Part shown: positions 38,551-46,982 of the stretch, piece by piece | Numbering within the stretch: position 1 is the first letter of the stretch | Layout of the letters: each line of letters starts with the position of its first letter | NCBI GenBank assembly: GCA_015059045.1 | Contig: SVBD01000001.1 | Location: 66,165 to 130,164, forward strand | DNA length: 64,000 nucleotides | From: Erysipelotrichaceae bacterium | GTDB taxonomy: Bacteria > Bacillota_I > Bacilli_A > RFN20 > CAG-449 | Direction of reading: 5' to 3' | Notes under the pieces: generated by a model | What the model saw: the letters and a program-made list of their open reading frames with translations, nothing else | Database searches by the model: none | Told to the model about the DNA's origin: nothing | Translations under genes and position numbers: made by a program

Positions 38551-39606
38551 TTAATTATTATTTATAAAATAATCTAATTTAGATACTACTTCTTCAGGCT
38601 TACATGTGCCAATTACTTGTCCTTTGACAAACATAGTACATGTTGTTTGATTATTAAATGCAAATCCAATATCTGCTTGTTTTCCTTCACCAATTCCATT
38701 AACTACACATCCCATGACGGCAACAGTAATTTTTTTATTGGCTTTTTGAAGATATGCATCTACTTTTCTAGATAATTTCATAATATTAGCGTTAGCTCTT
38801 CCACACATTGGACAACTTATTAAAGTGTAATAAGATGAGTAAAGATTTAATTCATGAAGTAATCTTTTGCACGCTCTAACTTCTTCTATAGGTTGATCGG
38901 ATAGAGAAATTCTAATTGTATTTCCAATTCCTTCTAATAATAATGGGACAAGAGCTACACAAGAACGAATTAATCCAATATCTTTGTATGATGTTTCAGT
39001 AACTCCAATGTGAAGAGGATAGTCATACTTTTTACTTGCAATTCGATATGCTTCTAAAGTATCTAATGGATTACTAGATTTTAAGGCAAGGACAAGATTA
39101 TAGAATCCGCGATCTTCAAATATTTTGATATATTTATCAAGTGATTCAATCATTAAGTCTAGGGTAACTTTATTATTGTTATTTTTAACCATTTCTGGAT
39201 CGATTGAACCGGAATTTACTCCAATTCTAATTGGAACATCGTATTGTTTACAAATATCTATTACTTGATTAATTTGGTCTTCATTTTTCAGATTTCCTGG
39301 ATTTAATCTAATTTTATCTGCACCATTTTCTACAGCTTTTAAAGCAAGGCGATAGTCATAGTGAATATCTGCAACTAGAGGAATATGAATTCTTTTTTTA
39401 ATTTCCTTAATTGCTTCTGCATCTTTAAAGTCTAAAACTGATACGCGAATTAATTCTAATCCTTCTTTTTCCATTTTAAGAATTTGATTTACAACTTTAT
39501 TTACGTATTCAGTTTTAATATTACACATTGATTGAATAATAACTTTGTTATTACCACCAATATAAATGTTTCCAACTTTAATCTGTTTTGTGTTTTCTCG
39601 AATCAT
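38551..39606 (-). CDS. ispG: 4-hydroxy-3-methylbut-2-enyl diphosphate synthase IspG (GcpE)
   Basis: TIM-barrel N-domain and C-terminal 4Fe-4S domain with CPMCGR...C motif. 351 aa. Confidence 0.93.
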   Translation of the reverse strand: MIRENTKQIKVGNIYIGGNNKVIIQSMCNIKTEYVNKVVNQILKMEKEGLELIRVSVLDFKDAEAIKEIKKRIHIPLVADIHYDYRLALKAVENGADKIRLNPGNLKNEDQINQVIDICKQYDVPIRIGVNSGSIDPEMVKNNNNKVTLDLMIESLDKYIKIFEDRGFYNLVLALKSSNPLDTLEAYRIASKKYDYPLHIGVTETSYKDIGLIRSCVALVPLLLEGIGNTIRISLSDQPIEEVRACKRLLHELNLYSSYYTLISCPMCGRANANIMKLSRKVDAYLQKANKKITVAVMGCVVNGIGEGKQADIGFAFNNQTTCTMFVKGQVIGTCKPEEVVSKLDYFINNN

Positions 39607-39654
39607 ATTATCACCTAAAAATTATTATAATGACTTTTATAATTAAATAAAAGA

Positions 39655-39690
39655 GTAAAATAAAAATGCATGTTTTACATGCATTTTATT
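39655..39690 (-). terminator. Terminator of the small P-loop gene (minus strand)
   Basis: aaaatgcatg-tttta-catgcatttt palindrome followed on the minus strand by a T-rich run. ispG promoter/RBS lies downstream of it. Confidence 0.65.
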
Positions 39691-39696
39691 GAATTA

Positions 39697-40002
39697 TTAT
39701 CTTTTATCTAAGTCGACTACTTCTAAATCTTCGTCGCTGTTTACTGTGATCCCTGCTAAAGAGGTATGTAAGACTGCATCTAAAACTCTCTTTATATCAT
39801 CAATATAAACTTCTTTTACATCTTCTGATAAACTATTCATTGTAATTGGTAATGGGATATCATATCCATAACCTTTTGCTTTAACTAATAAGCGTTCTAC
39901 ACGAGCTTGTGATTCGCAAAGAACTGGGATATTATTCTTTGCACTTAGTTCTAAAAGTGCTTTTGTTTTGCCACTCCCTGGGTTTCCAAAAATTAATTTC
40001 AT
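39697..40002 (-). CDS. Mini P-loop NTPase (101 aa: Walker A GNPGSGKT, Walker B-like VYIDDI, nothing else)
   Basis: Seen directly. Own RBS (gagaggtat) and own terminator. Divergent from the DUF1538/PII operon. Confidence 0.55.
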   Translation of the reverse strand: MKLIFGNPGSGKTKALLELSAKNNIPVLCESQARVERLLVKAKGYGYDIPLPITMNSLSEDVKEVYIDDIKRVLDAVLHTSLAGITVNSDEDLEVVDLDKR

Positions 40003-40189
40003 ATTATTATACCTCTCTATCTATTTAATTTAATTATATATTATTTTTTTTAGATGTCTAGTATTTTTTATTTTTCAATTGGATTATTTTTATAAAAATA
40101 ATAATTATTAATATAAATCTAAATTTCAAAACTTAAACTTTTTATAATGTGTGATTCATGATATAATTTTAAATTGAGGTGAAAATAGA

Positions 40190-41716
40190 ATGCTACATCA
40201 TTTATTAGAAAAAATTAAAGAAGCAGTAATATCTGTTTTACCACTGTCACTAATAATTATAATATTTTCATTAACACCAATGTTCACTTTTGGTACAAAT
40301 GAAATATTAGTATTTTCAGCATCCACTATTTTACTTATTATTGGTATTTCATTATTTACTCTTGGAGCAGATGTTGCTATGCGTCCAATGGGGGAACAAA
40401 TTGGTTCTTCATTAATAAAAACTAAAAAAATATTCTTAATTTTATTTGTGTGTTTTGTACTTGGCTTATTAATTACTATCGCAGAACCAGATTTAAGCGT
40501 ATTAGCAAATCAAGTTAAAGAAGCAATTAATTCGACTTTATTAATTGTTACTATTGGTATTGGTGTTGGATTATTCCTAGTTCTAGCAGTTTGTAAAATT
40601 ATATTTAAGATTGAACTAACATCTTTATTAATGTTGTTCTATCTTGTTGTTTTCGGTCTTACTTCTATATTGATAGCAAATGGTAATAGTGCATTTTTAC
40701 CATTATCGTTTGATTCTGGTGGGGTAACCACTGGTCCAATTACTGTTCCATTTATAATGGCATTAGGTGTTGGTATTGCAATGACTATAGGTGGAAAAAA
40801 TGCATCTGAAAATAGTTTTGGTCTTATTGCGCTTTGTTCTGTAGGACCAATTTTAGCATTGCTATTACTTGGTTGTTTCTCAAAAGGAGATGTGAACTAC
40901 GCAATTCCTAATTATGAAATTACTGATAATTTCTTTAAAACTTTCTTTGAAGAAATTTTTGTTACGATGAAAGAAGTAAGTTTGGCATTAATTTTAATCG
41001 TTGCTTTCTTCTTAATCGTTAATTTTATTTATATTAAACTGCCAAAGAAAAAATTAATTCAAATTGGCATTGGAATTTTGTATACTTTCATCGGTTTAGT
41101 ATTATTTTTAACAGCTGTAAAAGTAGGTTATATGCCAGTTGGATTCCAAATTGGTAAAGAAATCGCTGAAAAAGGTGAACTAATTCTTGTTATTTTTGCC
41201 TTTATGATTGGTCTAGTTGTAGTTTTAGCGGAGCCAGCTATTCATGTATTAACAAAACAAGTAGAAGATTTAACAAATGGTAGTGTATCAAAACGTTCAT
41301 TATTAATTGCATTATCAGTTGGTGTTTCATTATCAGTTACATTATCAATAATTAGAATTATATTTGATTTTTCAATTTTATATTACTTAGTTCCTGGATA
41401 TTTATTATCAATTGCATTATCATTCTTTGTTCCAAAAATTTATACTGCAATTGCATTTGACTCTGGTGGAGTTGCATCTGGACCTTTAACTTCAAGTTTT
41501 ATTCTACCTTTTGCTATCGGTGCTTGTTTTGCATTGCAACCTGTAGATAAAATTTTGCTTGATGCTTTTGGTGTTGTTAGTATGGTTGCATTAACTCCAC
41601 TTATTTCAATTCAAGTTTTAGGCTTTAGATCAGTTCTTTCTAAGAAAGTTAAAAAACAAATTCGTATTCGTAAAATTAATGAAAGCGAAGACGATAAGAT
41701 TATTGAATTTAATTAG
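40190..41716 (+). CDS. Polytopic membrane protein with internal duplication (DUF1538-like permease, two repeats each containing FDSGGV(T/A)(T/S)GP)
   Basis: 508 aa with about 12 hydrophobic helices. Repeated motifs PLSFDSGGVTTGPITVPF and AIAFDSGGVASGPLTSSF. Followed by two PII-like genes. Confidence 0.65.
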   Translation: MLHHLLEKIKEAVISVLPLSLIIIIFSLTPMFTFGTNEILVFSASTILLIIGISLFTLGADVAMRPMGEQIGSSLIKTKKIFLILFVCFVLGLLITIAEPDLSVLANQVKEAINSTLLIVTIGIGVGLFLVLAVCKIIFKIELTSLLMLFYLVVFGLTSILIANGNSAFLPLSFDSGGVTTGPITVPFIMALGVGIAMTIGGKNASENSFGLIALCSVGPILALLLLGCFSKGDVNYAIPNYEITDNFFKTFFEEIFVTMKEVSLALILIVAFFLIVNFIYIKLPKKKLIQIGIGILYTFIGLVLFLTAVKVGYMPVGFQIGKEIAEKGELILVIFAFMIGLVVVLAEPAIHVLTKQVEDLTNGSVSKRSLLIALSVGVSLSVTLSIIRIIFDFSILYYLVPGYLLSIALSFFVPKIYTAIAFDSGGVASGPLTSSFILPFAIGACFALQPVDKILLDAFGVVSMVALTPLISIQVLGFRSVLSKKVKKQIRIRKINESEDDKIIEFN

Positions 41717-41727
41717 AGGTATTAATT

Positions 41728-42117
41728 ATGAAAGAAAGTAAGAAAAAGAATGGGAATTTAAAAGCACCTGAAAAATTAATGATTCTAGTTACAATTGTTG
41801 ATAGAAGAAAAACAGAATTTTATTTAGATGTTTTAACTGGATATGAGGTTAATTTACAAACTGTTGCTTATGGATATGGTACTGCTCCTGTTGAATTTGA
41901 TGTTTTAGGACTTGGTGGTGAAGGTAAAGCAGTTATCTTCAGCGTGATAAAAAAATCAAATGTTAAGTCTGCATTAGAAGCATTAGATGAAAAATTTAAA
42001 ACAATAAGACACGGGAAAGGAATTGCATATACTCTTCCAATAAATAGCATGATTGGAGTTTATATCTATCAGTTCTTATCAAATCAAAAGGACACATTAT
42101 TAGGGGAGGCAAATTAA
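41728..42117 (+). CDS. PII-like (GlnB-fold) small signalling protein 1
   Basis: Beta-alpha-beta ferredoxin-like pattern KLMILVTIVDRRKTEFYLDVLTGYEV...GYGTAP...GKAVIFSVI. 129 aa. 12-nt gap from the membrane gene. Confidence 0.6.
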   Translation: MKESKKKNGNLKAPEKLMILVTIVDRRKTEFYLDVLTGYEVNLQTVAYGYGTAPVEFDVLGLGGEGKAVIFSVIKKSNVKSALEALDEKFKTIRHGKGIAYTLPINSMIGVYIYQFLSNQKDTLLGEAN

Positions 42118-42118
42118 T

Positions 42119-42430
42119 ATGAAAAAACAATATGAAAATATATTTTGTATAGTTAATGAAGGATTCCAAGATGCGGTTATGGAAGCTGCTTGGGAAGAAG
42201 GGGCAACTGGTGGAACTATTTTAAGTGCTAGAGGAACTGGCTCGAAAAATGCAGAAAAGGACTTTGGAATTGTCATTCATGATGAAAAAGTAATTGTATT
42301 AATTATTGTTCCTAGTGCGATTAAAGAAAAAGTTATGCATGCAATTTACAAAAAATGTGGGTTAAATACTCCAGGTCAAGGCATTGCTTTTTCAATGCCA
42401 GTTAGCGATGTAGTTGGAATTAATAGTTAA
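42119..42430 (+). CDS. PII-like (GlnB-fold) small signalling protein 2
   Basis: IFCIVNEGFQDAVMEAAWEEGATGGTILSARGTG...GQGIAFSMPV resembles nitrogen-regulatory PII. Translationally coupled (ATG 1 nt after the upstream stop). Confidence 0.65.
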   Translation: MKKQYENIFCIVNEGFQDAVMEAAWEEGATGGTILSARGTGSKNAEKDFGIVIHDEKVIVLIIVPSAIKEKVMHAIYKKCGLNTPGQGIAFSMPVSDVVGINS

Positions 42431-42521
42431 AAATAATAAAATTTATTTAATTGAAAATTATTTTGTAGTAATTTATTAAACAATATGATAATATAAACAA
42501 GGTAAAGATGGAGGTGTACTT

Positions 42522-42674
42522 ATGCCACGCGATAATATTATTTATAAATGTACTGTTTGCGGTGAAGAAAATTATATTGGAACAAAAAATAAACGTAACC
42601 ACCCAGAAAGAATGGAAATTAAAAAATATTGCTCAAGATGCAATAAAATGACTGTACATAAAGAAAAGAAATAA
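42522..42674 (+). CDS. rpmG: 50S ribosomal protein L33 (zinc-ribbon type); absent from the ORF track because it is under 60 aa
   Basis: [53 protein letters not shown] aaagatggaggtg. Terminator follows. Confidence 0.9.
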
Positions 42675-42693
42675 GAGCATTTGCTCTTTTTTT
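42674..42693 (+). terminator. Short terminator after rpmG
   Basis: agagc-attt-gctct followed by ttttttt. Confidence 0.5.
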
Positions 42694-42700
42694 ATTTATT

Positions 42701-43333
42701 ATGATTATTAAACAATTTAACTCATCAAAGTCATTTTCTTGCAATGTTTACGTTTGTTCCAAAAACAATATTAATTTTATTATCGATCCAGGTTTCTTTA
42801 GTGAAAAGATGAAATGCTATATTGATTCTATTGGTGGACTTGATTTTATCTTATTGACACATGGTCATTTTGATCATTTTTTAGGTGTTGATGAATTAAT
42901 TAATATTTATCCTAATTGTAAAGTTTACATCCATGAAGAGGAAATTGATTTATTATTTGACTCTAGAAAAAATGGTACGAAAATGTTTTTAAATCAAAAT
43001 TATCAACCTTCATTTGAAATTAATTCTATTCAATCTGGAAATTTAAATATTGATGGAATAGATTTAGAAGTAATCTACAATCCTGGACATACTAACGGAT
43101 CTTGTAGCTATTATTTTAAAGATGATAATGTCATATTTGTTGGTGACTTTATATTTAGCAATTCAATTGGAAGATGTGATTTACCAACAGGTAGTGTTAA
43201 GCAAATGAATCAATCATTAGAATCATTCAAATTAAAAGAATTCGATTTAGATTTAATAATTTATCCTGGTCATGATAATTTTATTAAATTAAGAAAATTG
43301 CTATTAATTAATCCTTATTTAAATAATTTTTAG
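42701..43333 (+). CDS. MBL-fold metallo-hydrolase (glyoxalase II-like)
   Basis: THGHFDHFLG (HxHxDH) motif and later His/Asp ligands. 210 aa. Confidence 0.75.
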   Translation: MIIKQFNSSKSFSCNVYVCSKNNINFIIDPGFFSEKMKCYIDSIGGLDFILLTHGHFDHFLGVDELINIYPNCKVYIHEEEIDLLFDSRKNGTKMFLNQNYQPSFEINSIQSGNLNIDGIDLEVIYNPGHTNGSCSYYFKDDNVIFVGDFIFSNSIGRCDLPTGSVKQMNQSLESFKLKEFDLDLIIYPGHDNFIKLRKLLLINPYLNNF

Positions 43334-44426: not shown

Positions 44427-46982
44427 ATGAAAGCAAAGAATTTGCTAGTATCTTTAAGCATATTAGGAGGTCTATTATACGTTACTTCTTGTGGTGAAGG
44501 TACAAACAATCCATCTTCTAATTTTACAATTAATGATATAGTTTTTGAAGATACTGTTGTTGAATATAATGGTGAAGTTCAAGACTTATTAATTAATAAT
44601 TTACCAGATGGATGGAAAGTTACTTATAAAGGAAATGGTAATAGCGCTCCAGGCGAATATTATATTACCGCAACAATTACAGATCCTAAAGGTAATAATA
44701 CACGTAAATCAGCAATTCTAACTATTGAAAAATGTAGTTCTGTTTTAACTGCTGAAACTGTTCAAGAAGCTTTTTGTGTAAATGGAGTAGGAGTCACACC
44801 AAGTTATACTCTAAACAACACTACTCAAAAAGTTGTAGTTGACAATTATTTTAAACCAGGTGTTTATACTGTAGAATTATATGCTGAAGAAAATGAATTC
44901 TACAAAGAAAGTAATCATGTTGTTGTAGAATTTACAATTAAAGAGGGTAATGAATTAGGTATTCTTTTCGAATCTAAAGAATTTGAAGTTGATGGAACAG
45001 AAAAAGTTATTACTGCATCTAACATTCCTGCTGGTTATTCTGTTGAATATAGAAATAATAAAGGAACTAAACAAGGAAAATACAATGCTAGTTGTGATGT
45101 ATTTAATGCTGATAATGAAAAAGTATTAACTTTAAATGCAATTTTAGAAATTGATAATCCAAAACATGAAGGATTTGAAGAATATTTAGATCAATTTTTC
45201 GTTGATTATTTAGGTAATGATTACATTGCGTGGAATATTTTTATGGCAAATCCAAGTTCTTTCGGATTTGAAAGAGATTTAACAGATAAAGCTAGTTGGT
45301 ATACTTATACAGCTGATTTATTTGCTGGAGACTATCTAAAAGATTCGTATGAAGGTATGTTAGAATCAAAAGGATACTTAGATGAGTTTAATAAAGATGA
45401 ATTATCATATGAACAACAAATTTCATATGTTGCAATTGAAAAATTAATCGATTCTTATTTGGAAGAATACAATCCAGATAATAATTTTAATCCGTATATG
45501 GAATTATTATATATCGATTCATATGGAGGATATGCTGCAAACTTTACAACATATATGGAATCATATGAATTTAGAACTAAGCAAGATATTGAGGATGTTA
45601 TTTCTTTAATTGAAAGCCTTCCAGAAGCTTTTGCTTCATATATCATCTATGCTGAAGAAAAAACTGAAGCAGGATTCCCATACAGTGATTATACTCTTAA
45701 TGAAATGATTTCTTATATTGATGGTGTTGTAAGTGATGAAAATTACTATTTACCTGACTTTATGGAAAATAGAATTAATATGGTATCTTACTTAACTCTT
45801 GATGAAAAACAAGCTTATATTTCACGTATCAATGATGCAATCGAAAATGAATTTATGAGCGCTCATAATAAACTAAAAGAAGATTTAAATAAATTCATAG
45901 GTACTTGTAGTGAAGATAAAGCTGGATATTTACAAGATTATGAAAAAGGTAAAGAATACTATGTACATCAATTATCTTCATTATTAGGTTACAGTGATTT
46001 CGATCCAGAAGCATATGGTGCATACTTAGAAGAAAATTTAAATAAATATTCACGTAAAGTAAATGATATTGTAAAACAATATCAAGATTTAAATAGTACT
46101 GATTCAAAAGCTTATAATCGTTTTATAGCATATGTTGAAGGCGAATCAATGGTTGGAATTCAAGATCCTAATAAAATGATTGCTTACTTAAAAGAATTTG
46201 CTAAAACAATCGTTCCTGAATTAAAATCAGAACCAACTATTAATATTAAATATATGGATGAATCAGTTGCTGAATTCTCAAGCGCTGTTGCTTATTATAT
46301 GAAATCACCATTAGATAGTGATTTAATGGAAAATATTACATTAAATGGTGTCACATTAGGTCAAGATTATAACTCCGCTTTATCAACAATGGCACATGAA
46401 GGGTATCCAGGTCACTTATATGCTTATGTATTCTCAAAAGAATTAGATATTTCTAATGTTGCAAAAGTTATGACTAGCACAGCTCACGCTGAAGGTTGGA
46501 CAACATATGTTGAATCTCAATTATGGGAATATATTAAAACTCATAATGCTGCTACAAATGCTGGAGAGCAAAAAGCAATTGAAATCGCTTGTGATTACTT
46601 CAAATATCAAGACTTATTAGTCTATACATTATACTCATTAGCAGATTTTAATATCCACTATAATAATTATGGTGTAAGTGATTTATCTAAGTTATTGATG
46701 AAAGCTGGATTAAATCAAAGTGCAGCTCAAAATGTATATGATTCTTTAATTGAATCACCAACTACATATGCTTCATATGGTTTTGGTAGATTACATTTCC
46801 TAGAATTACACGAAGAAGCTCAAGAAAAACTTGGTACAATTTACAATGAAATAGAATTTAATGCTTTAATTTTATCTCATGGATGGTGTTCATATGATGA
46901 ATTAGATGCATTAGTTGAAGAATATATTGAAGAGCAATTATTCTTATACAATCCAACAGCTATTCTTGAAGGAACAAATTAA
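44427..46982 (+). CDS. Large lipoprotein: N-terminal Ig-like repeats plus DUF885-like domain with HE..PGH metal-binding-like motif
   Basis: Signal peptide with lipobox LYVTSCGEG. Repeats around KGNGNSAPGEYYITATITDPKGN and KGTKQGKYNASCDVFNADNEK. MAHEGYPGHLYAY and EGWTTYVESQ resemble DUF885 conserved motifs. 851 aa. Confidence 0.55.
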   Translation: MKAKNLLVSLSILGGLLYVTSCGEGTNNPSSNFTINDIVFEDTVVEYNGEVQDLLINNLPDGWKVTYKGNGNSAPGEYYITATITDPKGNNTRKSAILTIEKCSSVLTAETVQEAFCVNGVGVTPSYTLNNTTQKVVVDNYFKPGVYTVELYAEENEFYKESNHVVVEFTIKEGNELGILFESKEFEVDGTEKVITASNIPAGYSVEYRNNKGTKQGKYNASCDVFNADNEKVLTLNAILEIDNPKHEGFEEYLDQFFVDYLGNDYIAWNIFMANPSSFGFERDLTDKASWYTYTADLFAGDYLKDSYEGMLESKGYLDEFNKDELSYEQQISYVAIEKLIDSYLEEYNPDNNFNPYMELLYIDSYGGYAANFTTYMESYEFRTKQDIEDVISLIESLPEAFASYIIYAEEKTEAGFPYSDYTLNEMISYIDGVVSDENYYLPDFMENRINMVSYLTLDEKQAYISRINDAIENEFMSAHNKLKEDLNKFIGTCSEDKAGYLQDYEKGKEYYVHQLSSLLGYSDFDPEAYGAYLEENLNKYSRKVNDIVKQYQDLNSTDSKAYNRFIAYVEGESMVGIQDPNKMIAYLKEFAKTIVPELKSEPTINIKYMDESVAEFSSAVAYYMKSPLDSDLMENITLNGVTLGQDYNSALSTMAHEGYPGHLYAYVFSKELDISNVAKVMTSTAHAEGWTTYVESQLWEYIKTHNAATNAGEQKAIEIACDYFKYQDLLVYTLYSLADFNIHYNNYGVSDLSKLLMKAGLNQSAAQNVYDSLIESPTTYASYGFGRLHFLELHEEAQEKLGTIYNEIEFNALILSHGWCSYDELDALVEEYIEEQLFLYNPTAILEGTN

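Follow-up and report, generated by a model that had tools for sequence, protein, structure and literature searches.

We describe here a three-gene module in which a duplicated membrane protein of the DUF1538 family (the permease) is encoded immediately upstream of two small proteins of the PII superfamily (PIIa and PIIb). On balance, we think that the permease is a secondary ion transporter, probably for cations and protons, and that the PII-like pair gates it at the cytoplasmic face upon sensing a nucleotide-type ligand. The module lies on the plus strand of a 64,000-nt stretch of DNA (the window; G+C content of ~27%) from contig SVBD01000001.1 of assembly GCA_015059045.1, in which one protein is 100% identical to a public protein named "MAG: Erysipelotrichaceae bacterium." A first-pass annotation, made from the letters alone, had placed three plus-strand open reading frames (ORFs) at 40190-42430, and these coordinates proved exact. 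Its spacing of 1 nt between PIIa and PIIb also held, while the 12 nt that it gave between the permease and PIIa measured 11 nt. The features of the three genes, including their transmembrane (TM) repeats, are as follows.

40190-41716, plus strand: fused two-repeat DUF1538 permease, 508 aa (Pfam PF07556 in two stretches)
40190-40885, plus strand: N-terminal 7-TM repeat, residues 1-232, matching the first gene of split systems
40481-40492, plus strand: AEPD motif of the N-terminal repeat
40709-40738, plus strand: FDSGGVTTGP of the N-terminal repeat
40931-41629, plus strand: C-terminal 7-TM repeat, residues 248-480, predicted to be inverted relative to the first and matching the second split gene
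41228-41239, plus strand: AEPA motif of the C-terminal repeat
41456-41485, plus strand: FDSGGVASGP of the C-terminal repeat
41630-41713, plus strand: predicted cytoplasmic C-terminal tail, a Lys/Arg-rich stretch followed by DDKIIEF (family consensus, DDEQIIxF)
41728-42117, plus strand: PIIa, divergent PII-like protein, 129 aa (profile-profile comparison, predicted fold)
41875-41925, plus strand: T-loop of PIIa, residues 50-66
42013-42030, plus strand: B-loop of PIIa, GKGIAY
42046-42078, plus strand: extra C-terminal helix of PIIa, residues 107-117
42119-42430, plus strand: PIIb, P-II family protein, 103 aa (Pfam PF00543)
42233-42286, plus strand: T-loop of PIIb, residues 39-56
42374-42391, plus strand: B-loop of PIIb, GQGIAF

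The permease matched Pfam DUF1538 (PF07556) in two stretches at 416.5 bits, against a gathering threshold of 22.6 (E = 2e-125), with the better stretch spanning profile positions 1-210 of 211. When aligned with each other by BLASTP, its halves (residues 1-255 and 256-508) were 31% identical over 191 columns (E = 1e-23). The internal duplication, which had first been recognized from an FDSGGV motif in each half (FDSGGVTTGP at residues 174-183 and FDSGGVASGP at residues 423-432), is therefore real and far beyond chance. The AlphaFold2 (AF2) model of the permease was confident (predicted local distance difference test [pLDDT], 81.8; predicted template modeling score [pTM], 0.82), and 14 TM helices were predicted. 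Under this 14-TM model, the Lys-plus-Arg (K+R) count in alternate loops of 30 homologues averaged 24.8 versus 5.4, with equivalent loops of the two repeats showing opposite bias, a pattern that predicts cytoplasmic N and C termini and 7-TM repeats inverted with respect to each other. The DUF1538 fold has no solved structure, and the mechanism is not known for any member of the family.

The end of the permease looks like a candidate short linear docking peptide for the PII proteins. Residues D501, I504, I505, and F507 of the tail are invariant in the 30 homologues, and a Lys/Arg-rich stretch with an acidic-hydrophobic ending is also found in loci L001-L014 and in many of loci L118-L163. The motif is missing from the permeases of Paraclostridium and Peptoclostridium. 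Its form differs between clades, being DDEQIIxF in the clade of the window and DDEIIEL, DYDIIEL, or EDVIIYFD in others. One permease homologue (P0286; 617 aa on a 3014-bp contig) was considered as a permease-PII fusion and rejected; it carries instead a partial internal duplication of the permease around FDSGGVTTGP, which is either an assembly artifact or a recent tandem duplication.

Both small proteins belong to the PII superfamily, as the first-pass annotation had proposed, although they reach it by different routes. PIIb matched Pfam P-II (PF00543) directly, at 41.8 bits against a cut-off of 25. PIIa had no match of its own in the Pfam scan; many of its homologues carry a precomputed PF00543 match, and neither protein matched any Pfam family other than P-II. 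PIIa and PIIb were nevertheless alignable by BLASTP (E = 2e-5), and comparison of their family profiles gave an hhalign probability of 96.8% (E = 2.4e-10). The AF2 model of PIIa (pLDDT, 78) consists of a doubled beta-alpha-beta fold plus an extra C-terminal helix, and all of its top 50 Foldseek matches in the Protein Data Bank (PDB) were PII or PII-like proteins (best E = 8e-6), among them CPII (5d4n and 5d4p), GlnK, and the PstA/DarA and PotN proteins (4wk1, 4d3h, and 7o4x). Profiles and predicted fold together identify PIIa as a PII-superfamily paralogue of PIIb. Its subfamily is large: clustering at 50% identity leaves 1112 representatives at E ≤ 1e-10, two-domain fusions included; for the PIIb profile, the best solved sequence relative was NifI1 (E = 1.2e-4).

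In both PII families, the T-loop is long (~17 to 18 residues) and conserved, and the B-loop is short, with the form GxGIA(F/Y). Profile alignments to solved PII proteins showed that the canonical ATP-phosphate ligands are replaced in both (K90 by Ile, R101 by Gly, and R103 by Ser), and the NCBIfam GlnB equivalog (NF008111) scored just 16.9 bits against a cut-off of 202. From these replacements and this score, we judge that PIIa and PIIb are not canonical nitrogen regulators. PIIa has two further peculiarities. Its N-terminal extension (41728-41790) is variable and Lys-rich and ends in a conserved L-x-A-P-K-K-L, and its C-terminal helix, which canonical PII proteins lack, is hydrophobic (IGVxIYQFLSN). 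Both may possibly make membrane or partner contacts.

The gene order of the module is strikingly conserved. The fused permease has at least 8000 relatives, all at E ≤ 0.001, and a scan of one genome per species gave at least 598 matches, from which 80 loci were kept. These species loci, whose permeases are 53 to 63% identical to that of the window, come from Clostridia, Christensenellaceae, Oscillospiraceae, Lachnospiraceae, Anaeroplasmataceae, and metagenome-assembled genomes of Bacilli, from gut and rumen. The order permease-PIIa-PIIb is kept in 78 of the 80, and the remaining 2 end at a contig edge just after PIIa. The median gaps are 12 nt between the permease and PIIa and 1 nt between PIIa and PIIb, and PIIa-PIIb overlaps of 4 nt and 1 nt are common. 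This co-occurrence, together with the tight gaps, supports the initial description of a compact transporter-plus-sensor module. A contig of Candidatus Scatosoma carries two complete three-gene modules, convergent and 78 nt apart (L045:2584-7357).

Nothing else in the neighborhood is conserved to a comparable degree. The best cluster of flanking genes was found in just 6 of the 80 species loci and offered no clue to the substrate; metabolic genes, carbonic anhydrase and carboxylase included, are not conserved in these flanks, which also contain no nif genes, and no amtB, glnA, or nif gene lies near the module in the window. Nor did a scan of window positions 39500-42800 find a riboswitch or leader ahead of the operon that might point to a substrate, and none was present on the operon strand in 15 loci. 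With neither a conserved neighbor nor a riboswitch, the module appears self-contained, which points to post-translational control. At one locus, the opposite strand carries a tandem glycine riboswitch immediately ahead of the module (L012:3648-3822, minus strand), which therefore controls a divergent gene rather than the DUF1538 operon.

The link between DUF1538 and PII extends well beyond the close relatives of the window. Annotated examples occur in Alphaproteobacteria, Peptostreptococcales, and Oscillospiraceae. On plasmids of Chelativorans and Methylocystis, two split DUF1538 genes are accompanied by one P-II gene of the PIIb type, whose product scores 93 to 97 bits with the PIIb profile as against ~31 bits with that of PIIa. 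In Paraclostridium, Peptoclostridium, and Vescimonas, a fused permease is accompanied by a single 222- to 224-aa protein with two PII domains, of which the C-terminal one is clearly of the PIIb type; WP_021431978.1 of Paraclostridium is one such natural PIIa-PIIb fusion. We also examined a second sample of 80 more diverse metagenome loci, scoring the presence of PII genes where at least 400 nt of downstream sequence was available. All such loci carry PII genes except one (L109), which is a 5'-truncated remnant. The architectures in this sample were as follows.

Fused permease with fused PIIa-PIIb: 32 loci
Split pair with one PIIb: 19 loci, plus 8 incomplete at the contig end
Split pair with two PII genes: 4 loci
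Split pair with fused PII-PII: 4 loci
Fused permease with separate PIIa and PIIb: 2 loci
In-frame fusion of the second permease subunit with a PII domain: 1 locus (L092:2956-4026)

In the last of these, a 356-aa ORF joins a C-half-type DUF1538 subunit, through a KKRRKEEK linker, to a PIIb-type domain, which is thus attached at the position equivalent to the C terminus of the window permease. Across the lineages sampled, PIIb appears to be the core partner, being present in all of them, while PIIa would be a divergent paralogue that accompanies the fused permeases sampled, mostly in gut and rumen Firmicutes. From Alphaproteobacteria to gut Firmicutes, DUF1538 appears to be PII-coupled almost without exception.

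The split systems also bear on the origin of the inverted repeats. In Alphaproteobacteria, the first split gene resembles the N-terminal half of the permease (AEPD motif and an uncharged TM1-2 loop), and the second resembles the C-terminal half (AEPA motif and a KLPRR loop). K+R counts in 22 split pairs predicted an N-in orientation for the product of gene 1 (7.0 versus 2.1) and an N-out/C-in orientation for that of gene 2 (3.5 versus 9.5). The split relatives would accordingly be read as antiparallel heterodimers, and these opposite orientations suggest a family that runs from antiparallel heterodimers to fused inverted repeats.

The sole functional evidence for the DUF1538 family comes from UmpAB of Halomonas zhaodongensis, a DUF1538 pair reported to act as a pH-dependent Na+(Li+, K+)/H+ antiporter and to need both subunits, as determined for this one protein pair by complementation of Escherichia coli KNabc and by vesicle assays (PMC5484666). 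The first-pass annotation had called the membrane family one of unknown function; this remains true of the module, which is experimentally uncharacterized, and is not true of the family as a whole, given the antiport reported for UmpAB. The window permease shares the Pfam family with UmpAB and, like it, comprises two homologous units of ~7 TM helices, which in UmpAB are required together; its halves align end to end with the UmpA and UmpB models. It differs in that the units are fused in one 508-aa chain rather than being separate subunits, and UmpAB was studied without a PII partner and has not been described as antiparallel. The scores set the two apart as well: the window permease reached 154.8 bits on NCBIfam NF041627 (UmpA; cut-off, 490) and 133.9 bits on NF041628 (UmpB; cut-off, 500), leaving it outside the one characterized group of the family. 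Ten split-type relatives scored 77 to 128 bits on these models, and none of the split-type loci examined for a true UmpAB equivalog beside a PII gene reached the cut-offs. In a separate line of work, a machine-learning model that predicts the optimal pH for growth placed the presence of DUF1538 within its top 20 features (PMC13255231), an association that is correlative only and possibly confounded by phylogeny.

Given the gene anatomy, the folds, the topology, and the near-obligate synteny across phyla, domain fusions included, all of which are established by the observations above, we infer that the three proteins form a physical complex at the cytoplasmic side of the membrane; its gating, ligand, and substrate are proposed on the same footing. 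In the mechanism that we favor, the AEP(D/A) motif and the broken helix FDSGGV(T/A)(T/S)GP of each repeat would come together in the middle of the membrane as the site for the ion or substrate, and the conserved acidic residues within the membrane (AEPD, AEPA, and the two FDSGG Asp residues) would fit cation handling. By homology to UmpAB, the permease would most likely exchange monovalent cations (Na+, K+, or Li+) for H+. PIIa and PIIb, made in fixed proportion through coupled translation, would use their long conserved T-loops to dock on the permease, at its cytoplasmic face or C-terminal tail, and would open or plug it in response to a small-molecule signal. The candidate contacts are these T-loops and the invariant tail, with its basic stretch and DDEQIIxF. 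The signal would probably be an adenine-nucleotide-type ligand, bound otherwise than in the canonical ATP/2-oxoglutarate mode. Such an arrangement has precedent in AmtB-GlnK and SbtA-SbtB, where a PII protein acts as a plug or valve on the transporter encoded in its own operon (bioRxiv 10.1101/2023.08.10.552651).

We also put forward, tentatively, a bolder version of this proposal, in which PIIa and PIIb form a heteromeric assembly on the tail and cytoplasmic face of the inverted-repeat permease and so make the exchange of alkali cations and protons in gut Firmicutes respond to energy charge or to a nucleotide second messenger, with the corollary that all DUF1538 proteins are obligately PII-coupled. 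The hetero-oligomer is suggested by the natural PIIa-PIIb fusions only. Cyclic di-AMP is an attractive candidate for the second messenger, because it controls K+ and osmolyte transport in Firmicutes.

Several points weigh against the proposed gating of a cation/proton exchanger by the PII pair. The interaction between the permease and the PII proteins is itself inferred from gene anatomy, folds, topology, and synteny. The L092 fusion comes from a single contig and could reflect an error in sequencing where stop and start codons overlap. With K90, R101, and R103 missing from both PII proteins, nucleotide binding is not assured. The window permease falls so far below the UmpA and UmpB equivalog cut-offs that the transfer of substrate is weak and holds at the family level only, and the UmpAB activity itself was obtained from one pair expressed without a PII partner. 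Finally, the 1:1 ratio implied by the PIIa-PIIb fusions is at odds with a single PII trimer.

Comparison with other transporter-PII modules shows what is shared and what is particular to this one. The conserved transporter-PII adjacency that marks modules of the AmtB-GlnK and SbtA-SbtB kind is present here. Like SbtA-SbtB, the cyanobacterial Na+/bicarbonate system, the module combines in one operon a secondary transporter with dedicated, noncanonical PII-like protein bearing a long T-loop, with regulation presumed to act via nucleotide-type ligands. The transporter families are unrelated, however, and two paralogous PII proteins are present here rather than one; similarity to SbtB was marginal (E = 0.43, over residues 10-47 only, ~38 residues), and the partner is DUF1538 rather than SbtA, which places the pair outside that family. 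AmtB-GlnK is likewise a conserved transporter-PII gene pair, and the T-loop plug of GlnK is the model for the gating proposed here. GlnK, however, is canonical, binds ATP, ADP, and 2-oxoglutarate, and has a G-D-G-K-I-F B-loop with K90, R101, and R103, in place of which PIIb has GQGIAF and PIIa has GKGIAY, and the membrane fold of AmtB differs from that of the DUF1538 permease.

Two paralogous PII genes in tandem are also found in NifI1-NifI2, whose products target nitrogenase, are encoded in nif operons, and form a 2:1 heterotrimer (PDB 9P1X; PMC12439982). The proposed target here is instead a transporter, the PIIa-PIIb fusions imply a 1:1 ratio rather than 2:1, and the genes are not located in a nif operon. 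PstA/DarA and PotN share with PIIa a PII-like fold in Firmicutes and are among its top structural matches. PstA, however, has a short T-loop and a long B-loop, as opposed to the long T-loop and short GxGIAF B-loop found here, and neither loop lengths nor family match assigns PIIa or PIIb to PstA/DarA; PotN differs in accompanying an ABC polyamine transporter.

Among the alternatives, the one that survives best, though we consider it rather unlikely, retains the same architecture and makes the permease a cation-coupled importer of a solute or anion (for example, bicarbonate or a small metabolite), with the PII pair as a valve that allows passage in one direction only, the role proposed for SbtB in its action on SbtA. 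PII-like proteins classically partner importers of inorganic carbon and nitrogen, Na+-coupled symporters often contain broken helices with Gly/Ser/Thr-rich motifs, and the relationship of the window permease to UmpAB is only distant. The best structural matches of PIIa do include the bicarbonate/ADP-binding CPII, but these are no better than its matches to GlnK, PstA, and PotN (all E = 1e-5 to 1e-4). The flanks of the 80 species loci, empty of conserved metabolic genes as noted above, also speak against an importer, as does the fact that cation/proton antiport is the only activity measured for any DUF1538 protein.

It is distinctly improbable, in our estimation, that the permease works mainly as an anchor or sensor in the membrane (a transceptor), sequestering PII proteins whose true targets are cytoplasmic enzymes or regulators, in the manner of AmtB-GlnK. 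PII proteins usually have multiple targets, membrane sequestration of GlnK is well established, and the module sits in variable housekeeping contexts, all of which would suit such a role. A dedicated partnership is indicated instead by synteny that is near-obligate and one-to-one, by the fusions of PII to PII, and by that of the permease to PII, and the extreme conservation of the permease core motifs (76% mean column identity) is as expected for a working transporter. That the small proteins are ordinary GlnB/GlnK nitrogen regulators lying by chance beside a membrane protein, as the Pfam P-II match of PIIb and the public label "P-II family nitrogen regulator" on relatives might suggest, is scarcely credible and effectively refuted by their residues, by the GlnB equivalog score, and by a context that has no amtB, glnA, or nif gene nearby and a DUF1538 adjacency conserved across phyla. 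A role in anti-phage defense was also rejected, with no PADLOC matches and with a vertical, housekeeping-like conservation against it.

PII proteins rank with the most widely distributed of signal transducers, and yet understanding of their transporter partners is confined to a few: AmtB, SbtA, the NrtABCD nitrate transporter, and PotN with its polyamine system. The module adds to these a widespread transporter family that appears to be PII-coupled. Full-text literature searches (DUF1538, PF07556, UmpAB, and PII-centered) found no description of the DUF1538-PII pairing, and public annotation merely lists a "DUF1538 domain-containing protein" beside a P-II protein. Two leads from these searches were set aside: the Borrelia BB0017 "PII-like membrane protein" concerns YitT/DUF2179 and is unrelated, and a methanogen RB-TnSeq preprint merely cites work on NifI. 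What is new here comprises the inverted repeats, the antiparallel split relatives, the near-obligate PII linkage, the architecture variants, and the replaced ATP-phosphate ligands, the topological elements among them being predictions. The module thereby offers an unsolved transporter fold and a putative evolutionary series that begins with antiparallel heterodimers and leads to the fused inverted repeat. If PIIa and PIIb do assemble with each other, theirs would be the second heteromeric PII assembly, NifI1,2 being the other, and the first to serve a transporter. If the whole DUF1538 family is obligately PII-coupled, the published UmpAB activity would be that of a transporter stripped of its regulator, and it is a caution in any case that the sole functional study of the family was done without one. 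For abundant gut anaerobes, among them the reduced-genome Erysipelotrichaceae and Anaeroplasmataceae, the module provides a testable handle on how ion or pH homeostasis may be tied to metabolic state.

Around and within the operon, we noted the following putative control signals and the adjoining gene.

40159-40167, plus strand: extended -10 promoter-like element TGATATAAT, 23 nt 5' of the permease start codon, read from the sequence
40176-40181, plus strand: Shine-Dalgarno-like GAGGTG for the permease gene
41715-41720, plus strand: Shine-Dalgarno-like AGAGGT for PIIa, overlapping the permease stop codon
42103-42109, plus strand: Shine-Dalgarno-like GGGGAGG for PIIb, within the 3' end of the PIIa gene
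42522-42674: rpmG, adjoining the module downstream

A consensus promoter scan did not return TGATATAAT, because its -35 region is poor. The placement of the PIIb Shine-Dalgarno sequence inside PIIa, together with the 1-nt spacer, suggests translational coupling of the two PII genes. The rpmG gene, which had been flagged as possibly an unrelated neighbor, is indeed one, as it adjoins the module in none of the 80 species loci. It is preceded by a -10-like element of its own, TGATAATAT. No terminator-like hairpin separates PIIb from rpmG (42431-42700 searched); downstream, a single intrinsic-terminator-like hairpin occurs, following rpmG at 42673-42688, and is present on both strands. As there is no terminator between them, rpmG could be partly co-transcribed with the module in this genome.

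Several minor features of the surroundings were also recorded. Within rpmG, a subthreshold CRISPR-DR27 match (42595-42619, minus strand; 29.2 bits versus 35) is almost certainly due to chance. Divergent from the operon, a 101-aa ORF (39697-40002, minus strand) has a Walker-A-like GNPGSGKT and no Pfam match; its weak match to Csy2 (E = 0.0015; 17.9 bits versus a cut-off of 154) is probably also chance. Farther downstream and unrelated to the module, an 851-aa ORF (44427-46982, plus strand) has a lipoprotein-type signal peptide (…LLYVTSCGE) and carries an HEGYPGH motif.

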